A DNA stretch of 50,468 nucleotides. It comes from an uncultured Clostridia bacterium. Its GTDB lineage: Bacteria > Bacillota > Clostridia > Oscillospirales > CAG-272. Below the pieces are notes generated by a model. The model had not been told where the DNA came from, did no database searches, and saw nothing but the letters and a program-made list of their open reading frames with translations. Location: the NCBI GenBank assembly GCA_946404035.1, contig CAMJCC010000003.1, positions 1 through 50,468 on the forward strand, read 5' to 3'. The translations under genes and the position numbers were made by a program. Below are positions 1,079 through 16,896 of this stretch, piece after piece (position 1 is the stretch's first letter; each line of letters begins with the position of its first letter).

Positions 1079-1655
1079 AATCTTTGCCGTCGTGATTACC
1101 GTTTTTACTCTGCTGATCTGTTTTTCCGCCTGTGGCAACCCGAACACAGCGCCGGTATCGGACGACGTTTCACAACCGGAAGCGACTTCACAAAACGCCT
1201 ATGAACAAACCACGGCGGAAACAACTGTACCTCCGGCAGAAAGCAAACCGGAAGAAACGCAGAGTGAAACGAGCAAAGAAACGGAGGAAGAACCTGCAGT
1301 GAAAACGTTGACAATGAAGATCGGCAGCACGACGGTCACCGTTGACTGGGAAGATAACGAATCCGTCGCCGCGCTCAGAGAACTGGTAAAAGATAAACCG
1401 CTGACGGTACAAATGTCAATGTACGGCGGCTTTGAGCAGGTCGGCTCACTTGGAACAAGTCTGCCGAGAAACGACAGTCAGACTACGACCGCCGCAGGAG
1501 ATATCGTGCTGTATTCAGGAAATCAGATCGTGGTGTTCTACGGTTCCAATTCTTGGGCATATACACGGCTCGGACACGTTACCGACAAAACCGCAGCGGA
1601 AATGGCGGAACTGCTTGGCAACGGGAATGTAACGATCGAAATATCATTGACATAG
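1053..1655 (+). CDS. lipoprotein with cyclophilin-like-fold C-terminal domain
   Basis: ggagg RBS, lipobox FSA-C, T/E/P-rich linker, then MSMYGGFEQVGSLG...AGDIVLYSGNQIVVFYGSNSWAYTRLG typical of cyclophilin-like-fold proteins. Confidence 0.8.
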   Translation: MNSGKSFYKIFAVVITVFTLLICFSACGNPNTAPVSDDVSQPEATSQNAYEQTTAETTVPPAESKPEETQSETSKETEEEPAVKTLTMKIGSTTVTVDWEDNESVAALRELVKDKPLTVQMSMYGGFEQVGSLGTSLPRNDSQTTTAAGDIVLYSGNQIVVFYGSNSWAYTRLGHVTDKTAAEMAELLGNGNVTIEISLT

Positions 1656-1657
1656 CG

Positions 1658-1708
1658 TGTATCTTTTACGCGCTTTTAGCTTGGAAATGTATCTTTTGGG
1701 CGCTCTTA
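1658..1708. repeat. imperfect 21-bp direct repeat pair with 30-bp period
   Basis: tgtatcttttacgcgctttta (1658-1678) and tgtatcttttgggcgctctta (1688-1708). Confidence 0.8.
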
Positions 1709-1710
1709 TA

Positions 1711-1758
1711 CAAATGAAGAACGGAGAACCGGCTATGCGGCTCTCCGTTCTTCATTTG
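1711..1758. terminator. long hairpin, probable terminator of the cargo operon
   Basis: Perfect 17-bp arms caaatgaagaacggaga / tctccgttcttcatttg. Confidence 0.65.
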
Positions 1759-1982
1759 GTCTTCTCCTGCAAGTGTAAGGAACCTGCACCGAAAACGCGC
1801 GGCGGAGCCGTGGTTTTCCGGGCGCTTGCGCAAGCATTTTGTTTTTCTTTTTTTCGGGCGAAAAACCGTGTTTTGAATACGAACGCCGGACCGACAGGAT
1901 CGTCGGGCCGGCGTTCGTTTATCGCCTTTCGCCGTTCCACCGCGGCGACTACATAATTTTGCTATTTTGTGATGAAATCCTC

Positions 1983-2011
1983 TTCCATTTTTTTATTTTT
2001 TGTGCTATACT
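1983..2011 (+). promoter_or_regulatory. putative sigma-A promoter of the phosphorelay operon
   Basis: TTCCAT-17-TATACT with TG extended -10, in an AT-rich tract. Confidence 0.5.
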
Positions 2012-2108
2012 TAATATATATATTTTTATTCATTGAATTTTTGCCTTATAGTTTAAGGCAAATTCGTCGTTTTTTGCGGGAAGAGAATGACAGGAGGGCG
2101 GAAGCACG

Positions 2109-4646
2109 ATGAAAAAAAGTTGGGTCATAATCGTCAACGTGATTATTATGATCGCAATGCTGACTTTTGTTGTTCTTTATTCCAACTATGAGAACAAAAA
2201 CGCGACGCAGATGCAGATTGAGCACTTTGAGAATACCACGATCACGATGAAGCACGTGACCGAGAACTATCTGGAGGGCGAACAGCGCATCTGCGACGTG
2301 TGGGCGCGGTATATCAACAGTAAGGATATGACCATCGAAGAGGCGGTCTCGTTCATCCGGATCTCTCACGTTTTGCCGAACGCCTCCGTGCATATCGTGT
2401 ATCTGGATACGCTGTCCGGTCTGTCTACCAAAGCGCGGCAGGACGCGCCCGACAACTTTTCCGTTTCTTACGCGTCGATGGACTTTTTGAAAGACGTGAG
2501 TTGGATCAACGAGATCGGGCAATCCATCAACGTTTCCCGCGCGTATACCAACCCGGTCAACGGGGAACAGTCGATCGCGTTCTGCAATTCGATCACGCTT
2601 CACGATACCGAGACCGGAGATCCCCGGGGCGCCATCCTGCTGCGTGTGCTGCCGATCGCGGAACTGGAAGAAAAATGGATCTTCCCGAAAGAGGAGTTTG
2701 CAAACGCCGAACTCTCGATGATCGACGCGGACGGCGATTATATCATCAAGGGCCATTCCTACAAGAATTCCAATCTTTTCGAGTTTTACAGGTCCTATAA
2801 CGTGATCGATCCCGCCGATGCGCAGGAACTCTTCGGAGAGATCACCTCGTCGACCGGCTCCTGCACGATGAAGAACTCCCGCGGCGAGGAATGTATCCTC
2901 GCCTATACGCCGCTTGCCGCGACCGAGGGATGGACGCTCCTCTGCTTTTTGCCGATAAGAGAGTTGAACGTAAATACCGAAAACTGGCTTCTGATCGGGG
3001 TCGTTTCGGCGGGGCTCGTGATCCTGTTCGTTTTCGACTTGGCGGTGATGCTTCTCTTCAACAAGAAACTCCAGTCGGCGGCAAAGGAAGCGGCGGCGGC
3101 GAACCGAGCGAAAACCGATTTCCTCTCGATGATGTCTCACGATATCCGCACGCCGATGAACGCGATCATCGGGCTTACGACCATCGCGGAAAAGAACATC
3201 GAAGACACGAAATCGGTGCAGGAAAACCTGCGCAAGATCACGCTTGCAAGCAATCATCTGCTTACCCTGATCAACGATATTCTCGATATTTCCAAGGTCG
3301 AGAGCGGAAAACTGAACTTCTGCCCGCAGACGTTCTCCATCGTCGAGACGGCGGACAATCTCGTCAACCTGTCCCACCCGATGATCAAGGAAAAGAACAT
3401 CGAGTTCGATTTCCGCATCGGGCAGATCGACGTGGAGTATATCTACGCCGACCAGCTCCGCCTGAACCAGATCTATATCAATATTCTGTCGAACGCCATC
3501 AAGTACACCGAGCCCGGCGGCAGCATCTGGGTAGATATGCGCGAGGAAGCCAGCGCCAAACCCGGCTGCGTCCGCCTGATCTACGTTGTGGCAGATACCG
3601 GGATCGGGATGTCGCCCGAGTATATGGCGACGCTGTATCAGCCCTTCTCGCGCCAGACCGACAGCCGCGTGAACCGCATTCAGGGGACGGGTCTCGGTCT
3701 TGCGATCACGAAACAGATGGTCGACCTGCTCGGCGGGATCATCGATTGCGAGAGCGAGCAGGGCAAAGGAACGACCTTTACCGTTACGCTCGATCTTCCG
3801 ATCGCGGATCGGCAACGGGATGATATGAAACTCGAGCCGATGGACGTCCTCGTCGTCGACGACGACGAGATCTTCCTCGAAACCGCGGTCGACACGCTGA
3901 CCTCTCTCGGCGTCAACGCCGACCGTGCGGGCAGCGGGCCCGAAGCGATCGGTATGATCCGCCGCCGCCACGAGGCGGGACGCGATTACCGCATCGTGAT
4001 CCTCGACTGGAAGATGCCCGACGTCGACGGCGTCGAGACCATCCGCCGCATCCGCGAGGAGGCGGACAAGGACCTTCCCATTCTCCTGATCTCCGCCTAC
4101 GATTGGTCGGATATCGAGGACGCGGCGAGGGAAGCCGGGGCAAACGGCTTTGTCAGCAAGCCGCTGTTCCGCTCCACGCTGTACGATAAGATCAACGAGA
4201 TCCTCGGAACCACGGCAAAATCCGTCGAGCCGGAGAACGACTATTCCGATCTGCAAGGAATGAACGTACTGGTCGCCGAGGACAACGATATCAACTGGGA
4301 GATCATTTCCACCCTGCTCGGTATGTACGGGATCACGGCCGAGCGCGCCGAAAACGGGCGTATCTGCGTGGAAAAAATGAGATCGGCGGAAAAGGATCGC
4401 TACGATCTGATCTTTATGGATATCCAGATGCCGGAGATGAACGGGCTGGACGCCACAAGAAAGATCCGCGCGCTGGACGACCCGTGGGCGTCCTCCGTCC
4501 CGATCGTTGCCATGACGGCGGACGCGTTCCCCGAAAACGTCACGGAATGTCTTAATGCCGGAATGAACGGACACATCGCAAAACCCATCGACATCAAACT
4601 CGTTACCAAAGAGATCCGCAGAATAAAGGAGGAAAAGAAAAAATGA
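2109..4646 (+). CDS. hybrid sensor histidine kinase (TM, Cache-like extracytoplasmic domain, TM, HisKA, HATPase, REC, REC)
   Basis: H-box FLSMMSHDIRTPMNAIIG; N-box NILSNAIKYT; G boxes DTGIGM and GTGLGL; two receivers (VVDDD..ILDWKMP and VAEDN..FMDIQMP); aggagg RBS. Confidence 0.95.
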   Translation: MKKSWVIIVNVIIMIAMLTFVVLYSNYENKNATQMQIEHFENTTITMKHVTENYLEGEQRICDVWARYINSKDMTIEEAVSFIRISHVLPNASVHIVYLDTLSGLSTKARQDAPDNFSVSYASMDFLKDVSWINEIGQSINVSRAYTNPVNGEQSIAFCNSITLHDTETGDPRGAILLRVLPIAELEEKWIFPKEEFANAELSMIDADGDYIIKGHSYKNSNLFEFYRSYNVIDPADAQELFGEITSSTGSCTMKNSRGEECILAYTPLAATEGWTLLCFLPIRELNVNTENWLLIGVVSAGLVILFVFDLAVMLLFNKKLQSAAKEAAAANRAKTDFLSMMSHDIRTPMNAIIGLTTIAEKNIEDTKSVQENLRKITLASNHLLTLINDILDISKVESGKLNFCPQTFSIVETADNLVNLSHPMIKEKNIEFDFRIGQIDVEYIYADQLRLNQIYINILSNAIKYTEPGGSIWVDMREEASAKPGCVRLIYVVADTGIGMSPEYMATLYQPFSRQTDSRVNRIQGTGLGLAITKQMVDLLGGIIDCESEQGKGTTFTVTLDLPIADRQRDDMKLEPMDVLVVDDDEIFLETAVDTLTSLGVNADRAGSGPEAIGMIRRRHEAGRDYRIVILDWKMPDVDGVETIRRIREEADKDLPILLISAYDWSDIEDAAREAGANGFVSKPLFRSTLYDKINEILGTTAKSVEPENDYSDLQGMNVLVAEDNDINWEIISTLLGMYGITAERAENGRICVEKMRSAEKDRYDLIFMDIQMPEMNGLDATRKIRALDDPWASSVPIVAMTADAFPENVTECLNAGMNGHIAKPIDIKLVTKEIRRIKEEKKK

Positions 4647-5923
4647 AAAAACCGCTCATTACCCTTTTGCTCGTCCTCGCGCTTTTGACGCTGCTTGCCG
4701 CGTGCGGCAAGAACAAGGACGAAGCCTTCGAGCCGGCGCTCGACACCGAAACGAGTTGCAGTATCACCGTCGTCGGAAGTTACGATAACTTCGAGGCGCT
4801 GGAAGCCGAGTTCGATAGATTTAACGTGTTTTATCCCAACGTACGCCTCCGCTACGTGAAGTTGGACGACTATAACAACACGCTCGCCGCGGCGCTGGAC
4901 GGCAACGACAAGCCCAACATCTTCTTCTCAAACGCCGGGATGATCGGGAACGAGAAGTACAACTCGGTCTTCGCGCATACCGAGGACCTTTCCGACCCCG
5001 CCTTGAAACTGGATCTGAACTGCATCCGCTCGGGACTTATCAACAGAGACGCCGACGGCGCCGTCCGGATGGTGCCGGTCTTCTCCCGGACCTACGGGAT
5101 GCTGGTGAACTACGCCCTGTTTGAAAAGGAAGGGCTCTCGGTCCCGACCACGTGGGAAGAGCTGCTGTCGGTCTGTCAGGCGTTCAAGGATAAGGACTAC
5201 GCCAGCCCGATGATGGGGTACAGTCAGAAATCGTCCAGTTGTCTGATGTATACGGTCGCTTATCCGATGTTTGCCGCCGCGCTCGCGGAAAACCCGGACG
5301 TGCTCGCCAAGGCAAACGCGCTTGATCCCGCGGCGGGCGAATATATGCGCACGGCGCTGGAAGCGGTCGATCAACTCGTCAAGTCCGGCTGCGTCGACCT
5401 CAAGGAGTGCAACGAGATCGCGGACAACTATACCCAGGTGATCCTGCGCTTCTTCGAGGGCGACGTGCCGATGATGATCTGCGCCGGGGACACCGTGTCC
5501 GGGACCAAGAAACGGGAAAGCCAGTCCGAGGCGTTCAAGAACGCGCCGTTTGAATACGCTTTCGCGCCGATCCCCCTGACCGCGGATGGCGGGTATTTCA
5601 TCGACAGCCCGTCGGTAGAGTTTTCGGTCAACAAGGAATGCAACGATCTGGAAATGACAAATGAGTTCATGCGTTTCCTGATCTCCAAGAAAGAACTGAA
5701 CGAGATGGCATCCGTAAAGCGTCTGGTGACCCCCACGGCGGACCTGTCATTTGACACGGTGTACGCTCCGTTCGGGAACATCCCCGCGAGCCGCACCATT
5801 TCCCCCGAGGTGATCGGGATCACGGATCCGCTCACGGTACAGATCCGCGTCGCGGCGTTCAAGGTCGGGAAAGGGGATCTGACCATCGACCAAGCCGTCG
5901 AGCAGTACGGAACCTTTAAGTAA
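4643..5923 (+). CDS. extracellular solute-binding lipoprotein (sugar-binding family 1-like)
   Basis: Lipobox LAA-C, YGMLVNYALFEKEGLSVPTTWEELL, FFEGDVPMM; ATGA overlap with the kinase stop. Confidence 0.85.
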   Translation: MKKPLITLLLVLALLTLLAACGKNKDEAFEPALDTETSCSITVVGSYDNFEALEAEFDRFNVFYPNVRLRYVKLDDYNNTLAAALDGNDKPNIFFSNAGMIGNEKYNSVFAHTEDLSDPALKLDLNCIRSGLINRDADGAVRMVPVFSRTYGMLVNYALFEKEGLSVPTTWEELLSVCQAFKDKDYASPMMGYSQKSSSCLMYTVAYPMFAAALAENPDVLAKANALDPAAGEYMRTALEAVDQLVKSGCVDLKECNEIADNYTQVILRFFEGDVPMMICAGDTVSGTKKRESQSEAFKNAPFEYAFAPIPLTADGGYFIDSPSVEFSVNKECNDLEMTNEFMRFLISKKELNEMASVKRLVTPTADLSFDTVYAPFGNIPASRTISPEVIGITDPLTVQIRVAAFKVGKGDLTIDQAVEQYGTFK

Positions 5924-5984
5924 ATAATCCGAATAAAAAAACCGCCGGCGATGCCGGATAAGAGAACAGGTAAGGAGGATCAAA

Positions 5985-7712
5985 ATGACAGCCGAGATCC
6001 GAAACAGCGAACTGCCGTCTGAACCCGGAGCCGATCGGAAACGAAAGATCCTGATCGTCGAGGACGAGTTCGTCAACCGAGAGATCCTGTCCGCGATGCT
6101 TGCAAGCGAATACGAGGTGATCCCCGTCGGGTCCGGCGCGGACGCCGAAGAGGCGCTCCGCCGTCAATTCGGGGAGATCAGTCTCGTTTTGCTCGACCTG
6201 AACCTGCCGGATCGGCACGGTCTTGACATTCTGCGGGAATTGAAGGACGATCCGCGCACGTCAAAGATCCCGGTGATCGTCCTGACCTCCGATAAGGAAG
6301 CCGAGGTCGAGTGTTTGAACGTCGGCGCCATCGACTTTATCCCGAAGCCCTATCCCATCCCGAAGGTCGTGCAGGCGCGCGTCCGCAGGACCATCGAACT
6401 CTCGGAGGATCGCGACCTGATCCGCTATACCGAACGCGATCACCTGACCGGGCTTTATACCCGGGAGTATTTCTACCGCTACGCCGCGCAGTACGACGTT
6501 TACAACAGGGACGTGCAGACCGACGCGCTGGTTCTGGACGTCAATCATTTCCAGATGATCAACGAACGCTTCGGAAAGCAGTATGCCGACGGGGTGCTCG
6601 TCCGGATCGCGCGGGCGATCGTTTCGGCTGTCGGCGCTTCGGGCGGGATCGCCTGCCGCCGCAGCGCCGATATGTTCCTCGTTTACTGTCCGCATCTTTT
6701 GGATTATCAGGCGTTCCTCGACGGGATCGTCACCGCCGCCTGCGGCGAAGACAAGGGACGGATCCGCATCCGTCTCGGCGTTTGCGCGGGGGCGGACAAG
6801 TCGGTCGAGATGCAGACGCGGTTTGACCGCGCGAAGATCGCCGCCGACACCGTCCGGGGCAGTTTCACCGACTGCGTCGCTTTCTACGACAACGCGATGC
6901 ACGAAAAGGAGATCTACGCCGAGCGTCTGCTTGACGAGTTTCAGGCGGCGATCGACGGAAAGCAGTTTTCGGTCTACTTCCAGCCGAAGTTCGACGTGCG
7001 CCCCGAAAAGCCGATCCTCTCCGGCGCGGAGGCGCTGGTGCGGTGGATCCACCCCGAACTCGGCGTCATCTCCCCGGGCGTGTTCATCCCGCTGTTTGAA
7101 AACAACGGCTTGATCCGTATGCTGGACCACTACGTGTGGCAAGAGACCGTCGAGCGGATCGGAGAGTGGAAGAGGAAATTCGGCTGTACCGTTCCGGTCT
7201 CGGTCAACGTTTCGCGGGTCGATATGCTGGACCCCGATCTTGTCGAAACGCTCGTCGATCTGATCCGGGGCGGGGGGTTGGAGTTCTCCGACCTGCACCT
7301 TGAGATCACCGAGACCGCCTACACCGAGGACGCGCGGCAGATCATCTCGACGGTGAACCGTCTGCGCGAGACCGGGTTCGTGATTGAAATGGACGATTTC
7401 GGTTCGGGGTATTCCTCCCTGAATATGATCGCCACCCTGCCGATCGACGTTCTCAAACTGGATATGGCGTTCATTCGGAATGTATTTCGGGAAAACGGGA
7501 ACCTCCGTATGCTGAAAGTGATCGTCGAGATCGCGGAGACTCTATCCGTCCCGATGATCGCCGAGGGCGTCGAAAAAGAGGAGCAGTTGAACGCCCTGCG
7601 CGAGATGGGCTGCGCTATGGTACAGGGGTACTATTTCTCCCCGCCGCTGCCGCCCGGCGAATTTGAAAAGCATATCCGGGAGTGGCTTCCGCAGGGACGA
7701 GAAAAGGAGTAG
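5985..7712 (+). CDS. REC-GGDEF(degenerate)-EAL protein, probable c-di-GMP phosphodiesterase
   Basis: Receiver IVEDE..LLDLNLP..KP; DHLTGLY; GGDEF replaced by SADMF; intact EAL, DDFGSGYSS, KLD, EGVE and QGYY motifs. Confidence 0.92.
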   Translation: MTAEIRNSELPSEPGADRKRKILIVEDEFVNREILSAMLASEYEVIPVGSGADAEEALRRQFGEISLVLLDLNLPDRHGLDILRELKDDPRTSKIPVIVLTSDKEAEVECLNVGAIDFIPKPYPIPKVVQARVRRTIELSEDRDLIRYTERDHLTGLYTREYFYRYAAQYDVYNRDVQTDALVLDVNHFQMINERFGKQYADGVLVRIARAIVSAVGASGGIACRRSADMFLVYCPHLLDYQAFLDGIVTAACGEDKGRIRIRLGVCAGADKSVEMQTRFDRAKIAADTVRGSFTDCVAFYDNAMHEKEIYAERLLDEFQAAIDGKQFSVYFQPKFDVRPEKPILSGAEALVRWIHPELGVISPGVFIPLFENNGLIRMLDHYVWQETVERIGEWKRKFGCTVPVSVNVSRVDMLDPDLVETLVDLIRGGGLEFSDLHLEITETAYTEDARQIISTVNRLRETGFVIEMDDFGSGYSSLNMIATLPIDVLKLDMAFIRNVFRENGNLRMLKVIVEIAETLSVPMIAEGVEKEEQLNALREMGCAMVQGYYFSPPLPPGEFEKHIREWLPQGREKE

Positions 7713-7717
7713 AAACA

Positions 7718-8059
7718 ATGCTGACCGTTGAAAAACTGCGTGCGTTTGGCGCCAACGTGGAGGAGGGTCTTCAAAGGTGCGTCGGGAACGAAACGCTGTA
7801 TCTTGCTCTGGTGAAAAAAGCGATCCGCGATCCCGCGTACGATCAACTGCGGGAGGCGGCGGAAAAAAAGGATCTCGACCGGGGGTTTGAGATCGCGCAC
7901 GCCTTAAAAGGGGTAACGGCGAACCTCTCCCTGACCCCTCTTTGCGATCTGATCTCCGGGATCACCGAACTGTTCCGGCACAAAACCGACGCCGATTACG
8001 TTCCCATCGCCGCGGCGATCATCGCCAAACGCGACGAGTTGACCGCGTTGGATAATTGA
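7718..8059 (+). CDS. Hpt (histidine phosphotransfer) protein
   Basis: AHALKGVTANL Hpt motif; start moved to the ATG at 7718 after an aaggag RBS. Confidence 0.88.
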   Translation: MLTVEKLRAFGANVEEGLQRCVGNETLYLALVKKAIRDPAYDQLREAAEKKDLDRGFEIAHALKGVTANLSLTPLCDLISGITELFRHKTDADYVPIAAAIIAKRDELTALDN

Positions 8060-8089
8060 AAAAAGCGAGGGTAAACCCCTCGCTTTTTT
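8059..8089 (+). terminator. intrinsic terminator
   Basis: aaaaaagcgaggg-taaac-ccctcgctttttt. Confidence 0.85.
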
Positions 8090-8159
8090 CGTTTTGGGTG
8101 GGTCTATCGGGCTTTTGGGACCCGTCTTGCACTTTTTTTCGTTTTTCCGAACTTATATA

Positions 8160-8188
8160 TTGCTATTTTTGCCTTTATATTATATAAT
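8160..8188 (+). promoter_or_regulatory. sigma-A promoter
   Basis: TTGCTA-17-TATAAT. Confidence 0.65.
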
Positions 8189-8191
8189 GAA

Positions 8192-8209
8192 TTGTCAAAC
8201 GATTAACAA
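8192..8209. promoter_or_regulatory. Rex-like palindromic operator
   Basis: TTGTCAA-ACGA-TTAACAA, one mismatch to the clostridial Rex consensus TTGTTAA-N4-TTAACAA; overlaps the predicted TSS. Confidence 0.5.
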
Positions 8210-8252
8210 TTTGAGGTGCTTTGACGTGTTGTCTAACAAAAAGGAGAAAAAC

Positions 8253-10787
8253 ATGCAAAACCGCTCTGTCAAACGGAGAATAACGGTGTCCGTTCTTCTT
8301 GCTTTCGTCTTCCTCGTCATATCCGGCTTGACGCTGTTTTCGCTCTTCGCGTCCGCCGATCCCGTCGACGAGATCCGGGATTTCGGGTTCCAGACGCTGA
8401 CGGGCGACAGTTTGTCGTCGGAGACGACCTCTCTCCGGTTCCTGTTCACGGTCGGTTCGCTCGACTATATTCGCGCGGGGTTCGTCTTTTCAAAGACCAA
8501 CGCGGACCCGACGGTCGGCGGAGAGAATTGCGGCGTTTACGATACGACGGTGGTCCATTCCGCCGTCATCGCCGACGGAGAACGGGTCCCGGCGCCCGAC
8601 GGGCGCTACTGGGTCGCAGTCAAGATGACCCATATCCCGAACGCGGATTTCGACACGCCGATCTACGTCAACGCGTTCGTCGAGGACGGCGAGGGCGTCC
8701 GCTACGCCTCCGTGCGCAACGTCACGGTCCGCCGTGCGTTCGACGACGGCGATTTTCTGCCGGTCTTGCGTTTCGCGCTCACCTCCGACGTCCACACCCG
8801 CGTGATGAACGACGGCGGAGCGAGCGAGGTCGCCACGTCGGACGAGGTCGAGCACTCCGCCCTGATGGCACAGCGGCTCTTCACCTCCTCCTACGCCTAC
8901 GCCGACGGGGAAGAGTACGACGCGCTCGACGCCGTGGTGGTGGTCGGGGACTATACCGACGAGGGGACCGAAAAGCAGTATCAGGCGTTTTTCGGTATCG
9001 TCGACGACAATATGCGCCCGGGCACGACCCTGCTCGCCTGCCTCGGAAATCACGAGTTCCGTTCGCCCCACGAGGACGACGTATCGAACAACTCGAACTT
9101 CTCGACGACCTATACCCGCTTTGAAGACTATTTCGGCTACGATATCGACAACGTTCACGTCATCAACGGCTATACGTTCATCGGCTTCGCCGCCGATTGC
9201 AAAGGCGGTCGCGGCTACACCCTCTCCAAGGCGGAATGGCTCGAGGAGCAGATCCTTGCGGCAATCGCGAGCGATCCGACGGGGAAGAAACCCATCTTCG
9301 TTTTCGGTCACGTCCCGGTCTGGGAGACCTGTCTCGGCAGTATCCGGGAAAACAACTATCCCACCGACGATATCGGCGACGTGCTCGAGAAATACCCGCA
9401 GGTCGTGTACCTTTCCGGGCATACGCACGCTCCGGCTTGCGATCCCGAGTCGATCTGGCAGGGCACCTTTACCGCGATCAACACCGGGACGCTCGCCTAC
9501 GACGACAGCCCGTTCTATACGGGCGACGGTTCGACCCGCGGCAGTTACTTCCGGCGGGATCTGCACGGCGGGTATCAGTACGTGATGCTGGGCAGATACT
9601 TTGAACACGCCGAGTGGTACGCCTCGGTCTATACCATCGTCGAGGTGGACGCCTCCAACCGCGTCCGGCTCCGGTACTACGACGCGGAGGCGGATCGGTT
9701 CATTTTCGATCCGGTCATCATTGATACGATCGGCGAGCCCGAAAACTTCACCTTCACCGCCGAGCGCAAGGCGAGCTCCGAGGCGCCGACGTTCTCCGCG
9801 CCCCTGACCCTGCTTTCGGCGTCCTCCGGGTCGGTGCGCGTTCTGATCCCGAACGCGACCTGCTCCGATTACGTCCGCAGCTACCGTGCCGATCTGATCT
9901 ATAACGGCGACGTCGTCAAGACGGTCTACCGTCAGGCGGGACAGCAGAAATATCCGCTTCCCGACGTTACGGCGTCGTTCTCCGACCTCGACCCGAACAC
10001 CGATTACACCGTCCGGGTCTACGCCTATAACGCGTACGGCGTGATGAGCGACCCCCTCACGCTCGCCGTCCATACTCCCTCCGACAACGGCGGCAACCCC
10101 GCCCCCGACGTTTTCTCGTTCGGGTTCGATAACGAGGGCGTCGCGCGCGATCTGCTCTCCGGCGGGGCGCTGACGCAAAAGGACTATCCGACGGTCACAA
10201 GCGACGGAAACGGCTATTACGCCACCTTCGACGGCAACGACGCCTACGTCTGGAACGGTATTTCCAACTACTACGACGTGTTGGAGACCGGCTTCACCTT
10301 TGAGTGGATCGGTCAGGTCTACGATACGGTGCGCGGAAACGGCGTACTGTCGGGAAGCTACGACGACAACCGATACGTCAACCTCGCGTCCAACCAGGAA
10401 AAGGGCGGAATGGGGCTGGAATACAACGCGGACGGAAAGGCGTATCTCTTCGTCAATATTATGAGCGGCAGCAATAACGACTATTACGGCGCGGGCGCGA
10501 CCATCCCGGTCGGGGAGACCGTCCACCTCGTCGGTACTTACGACGGCAGCGTCATTCGCTTCTACGTCAACGGGGAACTCGCCGCGACCACGAGCAAAAC
10601 CGGCAAGGTCTGGTTCCCGCTGAAAGAGGACGCCCAGTATCTTGTCGTCGGCGGCGATTCGACAAAACTCCCTTGGTGGACCGAGCGCAATATGAACGGT
10701 GAGGTCCGGGCGATGAACATCTATTCGTCGGTGCTCTCCGCCGAAGCCGTCCAAGCCAAGTATCTGGCGTCGGGTCTTGCGGATTGA
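8253..10787 (+). CDS. secreted calcineurin-like metallophosphoesterase with FN3 and LamG/ConA-like domains
   Basis: Start reset to ATG 8253 (aaggag RBS). Signal peptide ending FASA; SDVH, GDYTD, GNHE and GHTH metallophosphoesterase motifs; LDPNTDYTVRVYAYN (FN3); HLVGTYDGSVIRFYVNG (LamG). Confidence 0.85.
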   Translation: MQNRSVKRRITVSVLLAFVFLVISGLTLFSLFASADPVDEIRDFGFQTLTGDSLSSETTSLRFLFTVGSLDYIRAGFVFSKTNADPTVGGENCGVYDTTVVHSAVIADGERVPAPDGRYWVAVKMTHIPNADFDTPIYVNAFVEDGEGVRYASVRNVTVRRAFDDGDFLPVLRFALTSDVHTRVMNDGGASEVATSDEVEHSALMAQRLFTSSYAYADGEEYDALDAVVVVGDYTDEGTEKQYQAFFGIVDDNMRPGTTLLACLGNHEFRSPHEDDVSNNSNFSTTYTRFEDYFGYDIDNVHVINGYTFIGFAADCKGGRGYTLSKAEWLEEQILAAIASDPTGKKPIFVFGHVPVWETCLGSIRENNYPTDDIGDVLEKYPQVVYLSGHTHAPACDPESIWQGTFTAINTGTLAYDDSPFYTGDGSTRGSYFRRDLHGGYQYVMLGRYFEHAEWYASVYTIVEVDASNRVRLRYYDAEADRFIFDPVIIDTIGEPENFTFTAERKASSEAPTFSAPLTLLSASSGSVRVLIPNATCSDYVRSYRADLIYNGDVVKTVYRQAGQQKYPLPDVTASFSDLDPNTDYTVRVYAYNAYGVMSDPLTLAVHTPSDNGGNPAPDVFSFGFDNEGVARDLLSGGALTQKDYPTVTSDGNGYYATFDGNDAYVWNGISNYYDVLETGFTFEWIGQVYDTVRGNGVLSGSYDDNRYVNLASNQEKGGMGLEYNADGKAYLFVNIMSGSNNDYYGAGATIPVGETVHLVGTYDGSVIRFYVNGELAATTSKTGKVWFPLKEDAQYLVVGGDSTKLPWWTERNMNGEVRAMNIYSSVLSAEAVQAKYLASGLAD

Positions 10788-15408: not shown

Positions 15409-16896
15409 TTACAGCAGGATGCAGATCAGCCCGCTCGACCCCTCGTTGATGATGCGTTCGAGCGTTTCGGCGAACCGCTCGCGCGCTTCTTCCGGCAGAT
15501 TGGTCAGTTTGGCGTGGATGCCCTCGCTCGTCAGATCGTAGAGCGATTTGCCGAACAGGTTGGTGTTCCAGACGGCGCCGGGATCGTCCTCCATCCCCGA
15601 GAGCAGGTATTTCACCAGTTCCTCGGACTGTTCCTCGGTCCCGACGACCGGGTTGATCTCGGTCTCCACGTCCGCGGAGATCAGGTGGATGGAGCGCGCC
15701 GCCGCGCGTAGCCGCACGCCGTAGCCGCCGCTCTGTTTGACGATCTTCGGGTCTTCCAACCGGAGTTCCGAGGCGTCGGGCAAAACGATCCCGTACCCCT
15801 TCGCCTCGCAGTCGCGGAACGCGGGCGCGACCCGGTCCCAATTCTCCCTTGCGCGGACAAGGTCGGTCAACTCGCGCAACAGGTCTCCCTCGTCGTTTAT
15901 TGCAAGCCCGGTCTTCTCCCGCAGCACGTCGAACCAGACCTCGGAGGGCAGCGCGACGTCGATCTTCGCGCGCCCCGTCCCCGCGTCCTGCTCCGCGACG
16001 GTCCAGGTCGCACCCTCCGCCCCGCCTGGCAAGCGCTCGGCAAACTCTTCAAGGCGTGCGAGGTCGCCCATCCGCACGGTCTCCTCGCTAATCTTTGCCA
16101 CTGCGTCGAACAGCGAATTTCGCAGGGGATGGTCGTCATCGAGCGCCGAGAGCCAGGCGGGGAGCCGGAAGCGGATCTCGGACGCCGAGAACTCTGAGAG
16201 CACAAGTCCGAGGACGTGCGACAGGTCCTCGCGGTCGAGTTTGGTGCAATCGACCAGCGCGACCGGCGCGTTGTACTTCTTTTCAAGGTCGTAGGCGAGT
16301 TTGACCGTCCGCTCGTTCGACGGCTCGGCGGAATTGAGGATGATGGCGTAGGGGCGGTTCCTGCCCGAAAGTTCCGCCGCCGCTGCCTCCTCCGCCGCGA
16401 CGTAGTTCTCCCGCGGGATCTCCCCGAAACTGCCGTCGCAGGTCACCAGCATACAGACGGTCGAGTGGTCCGAGATCACCTTGCGGGTCCCGACCTCCGC
16501 CGCCTCAGCAAATGGAAGCGGCTGCTCCGACCACGGGGTCGATACCATCCGGGGGACCCCGTTCTCCTCCATCCCGAGCACGTCGGAAACGGGGAAGCCC
16601 ACGCAATCGACCAGACGGACGTTCAGGCGCGTCACGCCGTCGGGCGTGATCCCGACCGCCTCGTCCGGGATGAATTTCGGTTCGGTCGTCATGACCGAGC
16701 GTCCGTTTCCCGCCTGCGGCAGACTGTCGAGGGTGCGGAGGCGGTCGCGCTCCTCGCGTATGTTCGGGAGGATCATTTCCTCCGCGAACCGGCGGACGAA
16801 GGTCGATTTTCCCGTCCGGACCGGTCCGACCACGCCGATATAGATATTTCCCCCCGTCCGTTCTGCGATATCCCGGTAGATGGTGTGCTGTCCCAT
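15409..16896 (-). CDS. spoIVA: stage IV sporulation protein A (spore coat ATPase)
   Basis: IYRDIAERTGGNIYIGVVGPVRTGKSTF, MTTEPKFIP, C-terminal GLICILL. Confidence 0.96.
   Translation of the reverse strand: MGQHTIYRDIAERTGGNIYIGVVGPVRTGKSTFVRRFAEEMILPNIREERDRLRTLDSLPQAGNGRSVMTTEPKFIPDEAVGITPDGVTRLNVRLVDCVGFPVSDVLGMEENGVPRMVSTPWSEQPLPFAEAAEVGTRKVISDHSTVCMLVTCDGSFGEIPRENYVAAEEAAAAELSGRNRPYAIILNSAEPSNERTVKLAYDLEKKYNAPVALVDCTKLDREDLSHVLGLVLSEFSASEIRFRLPAWLSALDDDHPLRNSLFDAVAKISEETVRMGDLARLEEFAERLPGGAEGATWTVAEQDAGTGRAKIDVALPSEVWFDVLREKTGLAINDEGDLLRELTDLVRARENWDRVAPAFRDCEAKGYGIVLPDASELRLEDPKIVKQSGGYGVRLRAAARSIHLISADVETEINPVVGTEEQSEELVKYLLSGMEDDPGAVWNTNLFGKSLYDLTSEGIHAKLTNLPEEARERFAETLERIINEGSSGLICILL

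Follow-up and report, generated by a model that had tools for sequence, protein, structure and literature searches.

We examined a four-gene signalling operon on contig CAMJCC010000003.1 (assembly GCA_946404035.1) of an uncultured Clostridia bacterium of the rumen, from the CAG-272 lineage of the Oscillospirales. The window, meaning the whole stretch of DNA analyzed, is the entire contig of 50,468 bases, in which open reading frames (ORFs), translations, Pfam matches, and promoter and terminator scans were read. Four consecutive + strand ORFs were confirmed, encoding a hybrid histidine kinase of 845 aa (2109..4646), an orphan solute-binding lipoprotein of 426 aa (4643..5923), a response regulator of 575 aa (5985..7712), and a stand-alone histidine phosphotransfer (Hpt) protein of 113 aa (7718..8059). 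Pfam matched all the components that the initial annotation of this DNA had named, namely a kinase with two receivers, a solute-binding lipoprotein, a stand-alone Hpt, and a regulator that joins a receiver (REC) to a degenerate GGDEF domain (GGDEF*) and an EAL domain. As that annotation had also said, no DNA-binding regulator is present, in that Pfam found no DNA-binding domain in the four proteins.

The stop codon of the kinase gene and the ATG of the lipoprotein gene share ATGA at 4643-4646, and 61 nt separate the lipoprotein gene from the regulator gene. The longest frame of the Hpt gene opens at GTG 7682; ATG 7718 is preceded by AAAGGAG, and taking it as the start leaves a gap of 5 nt after the regulator and gives the 113-aa protein ending at 8059. 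An intrinsic terminator, with a 15-pair stem followed by a T run, lies at 8057..8091 (+), and the remaining + strand terminator-like sites within the operon have stems of 5-6 pairs only; over 9.7 kb the scan called 24 sites, where shuffled sequence gave 10.7 ± 4.0. These coordinates bear out the arrangement first described, a single operon of overlapping or closely spaced genes ending in one strong terminator. Upstream, a ribosome-binding site read from the sequence (AGGAGG; 2092..2097, +) lies 11 nt ahead of the kinase ATG, and a possible extended -10 element (TGcTATACT; 2003..2011, +) was read by eye in the AT-rich leader at 1950-2100, for which the promoter scan made no call. GC content dips to 0.47 across 1501-2500.

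Traces of expression came from one sheep-gut metatranscriptome library, whose contigs cover 28/30 bins of positions 1500-8700. Thirteen of the 18 RNA pieces are at least 99% alike to the window and the remaining five are 95-99% alike, and pieces span the junctions between kinase and binding protein (4446-5034), binding protein and regulator (5200-6103), and regulator and Hpt (7277-8141). Metatranscriptome contigs cannot show strand or level and may include DNA carry-over, and with that limit these pieces hint that the operon is transcribed across its three junctions. RNA runs X2, X3, and X5 were left unused, as they gave pieces only, most of them 95-99% alike and the majority within the kinase core, probably from relatives. 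At window position 7762, inside the Hpt gene, one contig of run X1 is one base short (depth 6.4), which may be an assembly error or a strain difference.

The kinase begins with a transmembrane helix, an extracellular double-Cache (dCache)-like domain, and a second transmembrane helix, and continues with HisKA (residues 334-400; E = 3.3e-16), whose H-box histidine is H344, HATPase_c (448-564; E = 6.6e-27), and two Response_reg stretches (E = 3e-48), receiver 1 at 3846..4193 and receiver 2 at 4266..4616 (PF00072; both +). No Pfam family matched the extracellular sensor region (residues 26-291; 2184..2981, +) at E ≤ 0.01. Its double-Cache fold was read from a model of the kinase N-terminus (pLDDT 85.9), in which a long helix is followed by two alpha/beta modules and the second membrane helix, and among the Foldseek matches listed for the sensor almost all were dCache ligand-binding domains of chemoreceptors and kinases, with E values of about 1e-9. 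Unannotated dCache-like domains are described in LuxQ, VirA, MbaA, ScrC, and other binding-protein-dependent receptors in the available text of a review (PMC8050422).

The lipoprotein matched SBP_bac_8 (E = 5.3e-19) and SBP_bac_1 (E = 4.7e-17) and no other Pfam family. Its lipobox ends at C21, with A20 and C21 at least 90% conserved across 77 rows, and the mean column identity of the binding-protein alignment is 78%. Profile comparison with solved structures gave weak matches, RafE first (E = 2e-9) and then the xylo-oligosaccharide, MsmE, and arabino-oligosaccharide binders, and the structure model (pLDDT 88.8) resembles RafE, MsmE, GacH, and chitin-oligosaccharide and maltodextrin binders at 14-18% identity. 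Pfam, model, and profile together indicate a CUT1-type, oligosaccharide-binding fold, and an oligosaccharide is our best guess for the ligand from these comparisons. Three SBP_bac_8 genes occur in the genome (1.74 Mb in 132 contigs; 97.6% complete), and the operon's is the only one without neighboring permeases; all 11 permease matches of the genome lie on contigs other than the window's, and the other two SBP_bac_8 genes adjoin them. The initial annotation had reported no ABC permease, and BPD_transp_1 indeed had no match on the 50,468-base contig, where ABC ATPase domains were not scanned for.

A scan for relatives, taking one genome per species, confirmed at least 514 relatives, and the locus analyses were made on the best 80 of them, 69-87% identical to the binding protein, each compared by tblastn with the four window proteins. 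At 58 loci (type A) a full-length kinase, 60-92% identical to that of the window, ends at the start of the binding protein, and at 18 loci (type B) a kinase 35-38% identical begins just past the binding protein. One locus (L037) holds a partial kinase at a contig edge, two (L010 and L017) start inside the binding-protein gene and are uninformative, and one (L063) has no kinase in either flank. A hybrid kinase adjoins the binding-protein gene in 77/78 informative loci, in two gene orders, and a same-genus genome (L003) carries a more distant pair in which both proteins are 36-39% identical. The conserved unit is the pair of kinase and binding protein, not the four genes. The neighborhood survey called for at the outset upholds the pair and not the four-gene unit as a conserved system: among the 27 type A loci whose two flanks each extend for 2.8 kb or more, the EAL gene is present in 8 and the Hpt gene in 7. 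At L063 (7001-8287) no kinase lies within 7 kb of the binding-protein gene, whose neighbors encode an HD-domain protein and zinc-ribbon proteins. At one type A locus a second hybrid kinase, with HisKA, HATPase, and two receivers, lies convergent to the pair (L044:8469-10781, -).

The binding-protein gene has an adjacent permease at 0/80 loci. The initial annotation would have been refuted had the orthologues usually sat with ABC permeases, and the survey does not refute it. Permease-like matches occur in the flanks of 5/80 loci, and no ABC transporter family was found among 51 flanking ORFs scanned in 12 loci. These counts bear on the alternative that the lipoprotein is primarily the transport component of an ABC permease encoded elsewhere, with kinase signalling as a side function, like ChvE, GltB, and a chitin-binding protein. 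Such a role would suit the fold, for which every one of the nearest solved relatives is a sugar-binding protein of an ABC transporter, as well as the paired CUT1-type permeases that the genome has on contigs C1 and C16, and dual-function binding proteins are listed in the available text of the review cited above (PMC8050422). However, both of these permease clusters have a binding-protein gene of their own alongside, the ATGA overlap couples the lipoprotein gene translationally to the kinase, and the adjacent permease is lacking throughout the 80 loci. We consider a primary role in transport unlikely.

Modelling of the lipoprotein with the kinase sensor domain, a check proposed in the initial annotation, returned a predicted docking. 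The complex of binding-protein residues 28-426 and kinase residues 26-291 reached an ipSAE of 0.77 (runs of 0.80, 0.76, and 0.77), against 0.00 for the best of 3 control pairs; at least 90% of contacts are common to the runs, and partner pLDDT is 86. The score mark was reached by 116/157 solved complexes and 2/215 mismatched pairs, a calibration that holds only roughly here because the model was run on alignments that we supplied. The lowest-error contacts join kinase residues 146-152, 219-221, and 257 to binding-protein residues 48-58 and 72-84, and the predicted contacts fall on an invariant kinase loop (146-154). On the kinase side, 15/28 interface residues are at least 90% conserved compared with 56/238 elsewhere in the domain (Fisher p = 0.0014), and this conservation spans types A and B, with sensor domains that are only 39-44% identical between the two. 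The model supports a predicted docking of the binding protein on the kinase dCache domain. Between types A and B the binding protein is far more conserved, at about 71% identity, than the sensor it would touch (loci L006-L085).

The kinase might instead sense its ligand directly in the dCache pocket, with the neighboring binding protein unrelated or accessory. The dCache domains that its sensor most resembles in structure, such as those of PctA, Mlp24/37, and TlpA, bind small ligands on their own, and according to the available text on CuaD-CuaS-CuaR of Ruminiclostridium cellulolyticum (CuaDSR) the kinase of that system alone also perceives cellobiose (PMC10384115). Set against this are the adjacency of the kinase in nearly all informative loci and in both gene orders, and a modelled complex that passes its controls with contacts on the invariant loop, and we judge direct sensing quite improbable. 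Because the kinase linkage (77/78), the lack of an adjacent permease, and the complex model agree, a role for the lipoprotein as a transporter-less partner of the kinase is supported.

The regulator comprises Response_reg (6048-6374; E = 3.3e-21), a GGDEF match limited to profile positions 3-93 of 161 (6435-6704; E = 5.5e-13), and a full EAL domain (6936-7646; E = 9.3e-60). The catalytic and metal-binding motifs of EAL domains are EAL, N, ExxE, DDFGxGYSS, KxD, EGVE, and QG. In an alignment of 18 regulator rows the corresponding E349-A-L, N408, E440, E443, D470, D471, K491, D493, E527, and Q547 are kept in 18/18 and E530 in 17/18, and D71, T101, and K121 of the REC domain are likewise kept in 18/18. 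The GGDEF domain lacks the GG[DE]EF motif, reading S-A-D-M-F in the window and [SEVN]-A-D-[TMVN]-F over the 18 rows, and N193, R195, G197, D202, and D229 within it are invariant. PdeA of Caulobacter is an example of the GTP-activated phosphodiesterases, and by analogy with such enzymes the invariant residues suggest that the degenerate GGDEF domain has a nucleotide-binding regulatory role.

The Hpt protein matched PF01627 at 29.9 bits, against a cut-off of 24.6, and its H73-x-x-K76-G77 motif is kept in 31/31 rows. The full residue set for a His-Asp-His-Asp relay is present in the operon: H344 and the two receivers of the kinase, H73 of Hpt, and D71 of the regulator. The Hpt homologues of two other genomes (G064:C11:54424-54744, at locus L093, and G079:C1:43911-44234) contain an in-frame stop, one TAA and one TGA, and may be broken genes or the product of sequencing errors.

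The single PF01627 match of the genome is the operon's, only one ORF, the operon kinase, combines HATPase and REC matches, and eight receiver domains were found, three of them within the operon. Because no other Hpt or hybrid-kinase gene was found in the genome, the relay partners can be assigned by exclusion, and the wiring appears nearly forced. Elsewhere in the genome are 7 other GGDEF matches, 3 other EAL matches, and a single cyclic di-GMP (c-di-GMP)-I riboswitch (contig C2:12892-12966; 59.1 bits), followed by ORFs of 345, 261, 329, and 3476 aa that extend to 26301. To judge from these GGDEF, EAL, and riboswitch matches, the genome seems to have a working c-di-GMP system, and the C2 riboswitch probably serves as an effector for whichever activity sets the level of c-di-GMP.

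Across the 80 loci the output genes are more variable than the pair. An EAL and/or Hpt gene stands beside the pair in 21, downstream as in the window in 12 and on the upstream side in 9; at L077 the Hpt gene lies upstream of the pair, and the EAL gene is found downstream of it on the opposite strand. In genomes where the pair stands alone, an Hpt homologue occurs elsewhere in 20/20, with E ≤ 1e-23 in 18. Type B kinases, a Lachnospiraceae variant, carry one receiver and a fused Hpt, and at 14/18 type B loci the kinase is followed by a REC-HD-GYP protein, a second kind of c-di-GMP phosphodiesterase; no HD-GYP gene lies downstream of the pair at L050 or L072, and L060 and L073 are too short downstream for a verdict. 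Two unrelated phosphodiesterase families attach to the same sensor pair, and among the comparative evidence this is the strongest argument for control of c-di-GMP hydrolysis by the pathway. The output modules vary and yet seem to keep pointing to c-di-GMP. The relay toward c-di-GMP hydrolysis proposed in the initial annotation is supported by this HD-GYP variant, by the intact EAL motifs, by the recurrence of Hpt genes beside c-di-GMP enzymes, and by the lack of a second Hpt or hybrid kinase in the genome. Between the type B kinase and the REC-HD-GYP protein, 11 loci (among them L029:11131-11904 and L069:11196-11966) encode a 257-aa protein with an unannotated N-terminal 130 residues and a C-terminal receiver.

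The operon is best described, in our view, as a binding-protein-dependent phosphorelay that probably controls c-di-GMP breakdown. The lipoprotein, tethered outside the membrane, would bind a soluble ligand, by its fold probably an oligosaccharide, and it would dock on the double-Cache domain of the kinase and shift the balance of kinase and phosphatase activity. Phosphate would then pass from H344 to a receiver aspartate of the kinase, on to H73 of Hpt, and finally to D71 of the REC-GGDEF*-EAL protein. There, the EAL domain, predicted to be catalytically intact, would hydrolyze c-di-GMP, with the degenerate GGDEF domain acting as a regulatory module and not as a cyclase. The resulting c-di-GMP level may act on effectors encoded elsewhere, for example the riboswitch ahead of the cluster with the 3476-aa ORF.

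A number of observations weigh against this proposal. The score of the predicted complex is the model's own confidence. Conservation is not enriched on the binding-protein side of the interface (12/25 compared with 210/374 elsewhere), because the whole binding protein is very conserved, and the co-variation comparison returned one binding-protein column (T150S) that separates types A and B, located outside the interface (0/25 vs 1/374). The class of ligand follows from fold matches at 14-18% identity, and the carbohydrate-like ligand of the initial annotation, which has this similarity as its sole basis, is not supported as written. An attempt to pin the intermediate receiver to REC1 or REC2 was dropped, as the type B receiver is 31.5% identical to the former and 29.1% to the latter, a difference that decides nothing. 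In vitro, phosphorylation has little effect on some response regulators with an EAL domain. Five other receiver proteins of the genome could accept phosphate, and the EAL and Hpt genes accompany only the minority of fully flanked type A pairs counted above. Among 12 unlinked Hpt loci, a REC-GGDEF*-EAL gene lies directly upstream in 5, and 4 place Hpt beside a GGDEF protein, roughly 450-500 aa long, that gave no receiver match in Pfam even at E ≤ 1, so Hpt linkage to c-di-GMP enzymes need not imply transfer from Hpt to REC. Two of the 12 have unrelated neighbors, and at one (L092) Hpt sits between another hybrid kinase and a dCache protein.

The relay could end elsewhere, with Hpt mainly feeding another regulator, of transcription or sporulation, or with the EAL protein serving as a c-di-GMP sensor or phosphate sink. 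The five further receiver proteins, the EAL gene unlinked to the pair in most type A loci, the two unlinked Hpt genes with unrelated neighbors, and the second receiver of the kinase, to which no role is assigned, would all be accommodated by such an ending. However, Hpt lies beside c-di-GMP enzymes in 9/12 unlinked loci and beside the EAL gene in linked ones, type B uses an HD-GYP regulator, and the catalytic EAL motifs are invariant apart from the single departure at E530. We give an ending outside c-di-GMP hydrolysis a small chance and favor control of c-di-GMP breakdown. The GGDEF proteins upstream of Hpt at L088, L090, L091, and L094 have no Pfam match in their first ~300 residues.

The phosphate of LuxQ goes on to the stand-alone Hpt LuxU, as is proposed for the window system, whereas LuxQ has one receiver where the window kinase has two, and the Lux output is a transcription factor and not a c-di-GMP enzyme. 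LuxP belongs to the Peripla_BP_4 class, with the ribose-binding-protein fold, in contrast to the SBP_bac_1/8 class of the window protein, and the LuxQ equivalog NF041947 scored 317.8 bits against the window kinase, with a cut-off of 1200, covering only the kinase core (residues 309-695). The likeness to LuxP/LuxQ is architectural and not one of family membership; of the LuxP/LuxQ/LuxU-like label given at first, the architecture and the stand-alone Hpt hold and the descent does not. In the available text of the review, the LuxP-LuxQ-LuxU system of Vibrio, which responds to autoinducer-2, likewise has a free binding protein, and its docking site is the periplasmic, dCache-like domain of a hybrid kinase (PMC8050422).

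Closer in taxonomy are two clostridial systems. In CuaD-CuaS-CuaR, a signalling-dedicated sugar-binding protein is encoded beside the kinase that it binds (PMC10384115), and in XylFII-LytS of Clostridium beijerinckii a sugar-binding protein is encoded beside a kinase, is bound to it, and serves signalling and not transport (PMC8050422). As the available text of these sources has it, both are classical two-step systems without a hybrid kinase, Hpt, or c-di-GMP output, and their regulators switch on transporter and catabolic genes. On that partial account, the nearest precedent in clostridia for a sugar-binding protein devoted to signalling is CuaD-CuaS-CuaR.

The link from a binding protein to c-di-GMP has precedents in Vibrio. 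In NspS-MbaA of V. cholerae and ScrB-ScrC of V. parahaemolyticus, a free binding protein acting on a dCache-like domain controls a GGDEF-EAL enzyme and with it c-di-GMP, and NspS is of the SBP_bac_8 class, as is the window protein; unlike in the window, the sensor is fused to GGDEF-EAL, and the review's available text gives no intervening kinase, Hpt, or receiver (PMC8050422). The Roc network of Pseudomonas aeruginosa, in which RocS1/S2 act on RocR and RocS4 acts through HptA on RocR3, resembles the window system in having a kinase with a periplasmic domain of solute-binding-protein type and a His-Asp-His-Asp relay, one branch of which runs from a hybrid kinase via a stand-alone Hpt, that ends on a REC-EAL phosphodiesterase, according to the available part of the preprint (bioRxiv 10.1101/2024.10.18.618891). 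It differs, on the same partial account, in that an SBP_bac_3 module is fused into the kinase and there is no dCache, where the window has a separate lipoprotein. A degenerate GGDEF domain is also missing from RocR, and the network, which belongs to Proteobacteria, drives DNA-binding regulators too. VieSAB of V. cholerae is grouped with Roc as a comparable system. Each element of the window system has a precedent in CuaDSR, NspS-MbaA, or Roc, be it the binding-protein co-sensor, the hybrid kinase-Hpt relay, or the REC-EAL phosphodiesterase. Full-text literature searches, supplements excluded, turned up no described system, in Firmicutes or elsewhere, that unites an orphan binding protein in free form with a dCache hybrid kinase, Hpt, and a phosphodiesterase for c-di-GMP, nor any description of this rumen family.

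Other features of the window stand apart from the operon. The gene directly past the terminator (8094-10787, +) encodes a large protein with Metallophos, fn3, and lectin-like Laminin_G_3 domains, possibly a secreted or surface phosphoesterase, and has its own promoter-like site at 8160-8188. A SpoIVA gene at 15409-16896 on the - strand fits a spore-forming Firmicute. The GC content of the operon is 0.572, compared with 0.607 for the genome, a difference too small for the argument for transfer from composition, which was dropped. An argument for insertion from synteny within the genus was also set aside, since the upstream flank gene (1053-1655) matched in only 2/40 same-genus genomes and nothing comparable was available.

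Nearly all of the best 80 relatives come from ruminant-gut genomes, and cultured carriers, all of type B, are Butyrivibrio sp. MB2005 and Lachnospiraceae AB2028, RM5, P6A3, and P6B14. Within the window's genus the binding protein has a match in 1/36 genomes, 38% identical and likewise beside a kinase, and in other families of the same order in 2/24, one at 67% and one weak. In an even draw of the class, 6/398 other genomes match at E ≤ 1e-60, with 53-72% identity, and two further genomes were unscored. The module is rare in the class at large and common among ruminant-gut genomes, and it looks like an accessory, habitat-linked signalling module. In a quick, unrooted IQ-TREE analysis the type B binding proteins group as a single clade (SH-aLRT 93), which a short stem joins to the star-like radiation of type A that surrounds it, and family labels are intermixed. 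Such mixing would fit horizontal spread, with the labels and binning of metagenome-assembled genomes being unreliable, above all for single Sphaerochaetaceae and Flexilinea contigs, and no donor or direction being claimed.

It is tempting, if speculative, to view the pair as a receptor that has spread horizontally and detects a single common cue of the rumen, either a specific plant-derived oligosaccharide or a sugar-like signal made by the community, that is delivered to c-di-GMP turnover. The basis for this tentative view is that the binding protein stays 69-88% identical among genomes that bear the labels of different families and even of different phyla, that the partner sensors of the two gene orders have diverged to about 40% identity, and that the signal appears always to lead to c-di-GMP turnover via EAL, HD-GYP, or GGDEF modules. 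If true, the choice between attaching to plant fibre and letting go of it would fall to such a system, and in this organism it would run through the genes headed by the C2 riboswitch. With its at least 514 relatives, the sensor pair is not confined to one genome, and both its conservation and its association with the ruminant gut are notable. The system is an entry to the question of which external cue controls c-di-GMP, and hence may control adhesion and biofilm, in fibre-associated rumen Firmicutes.

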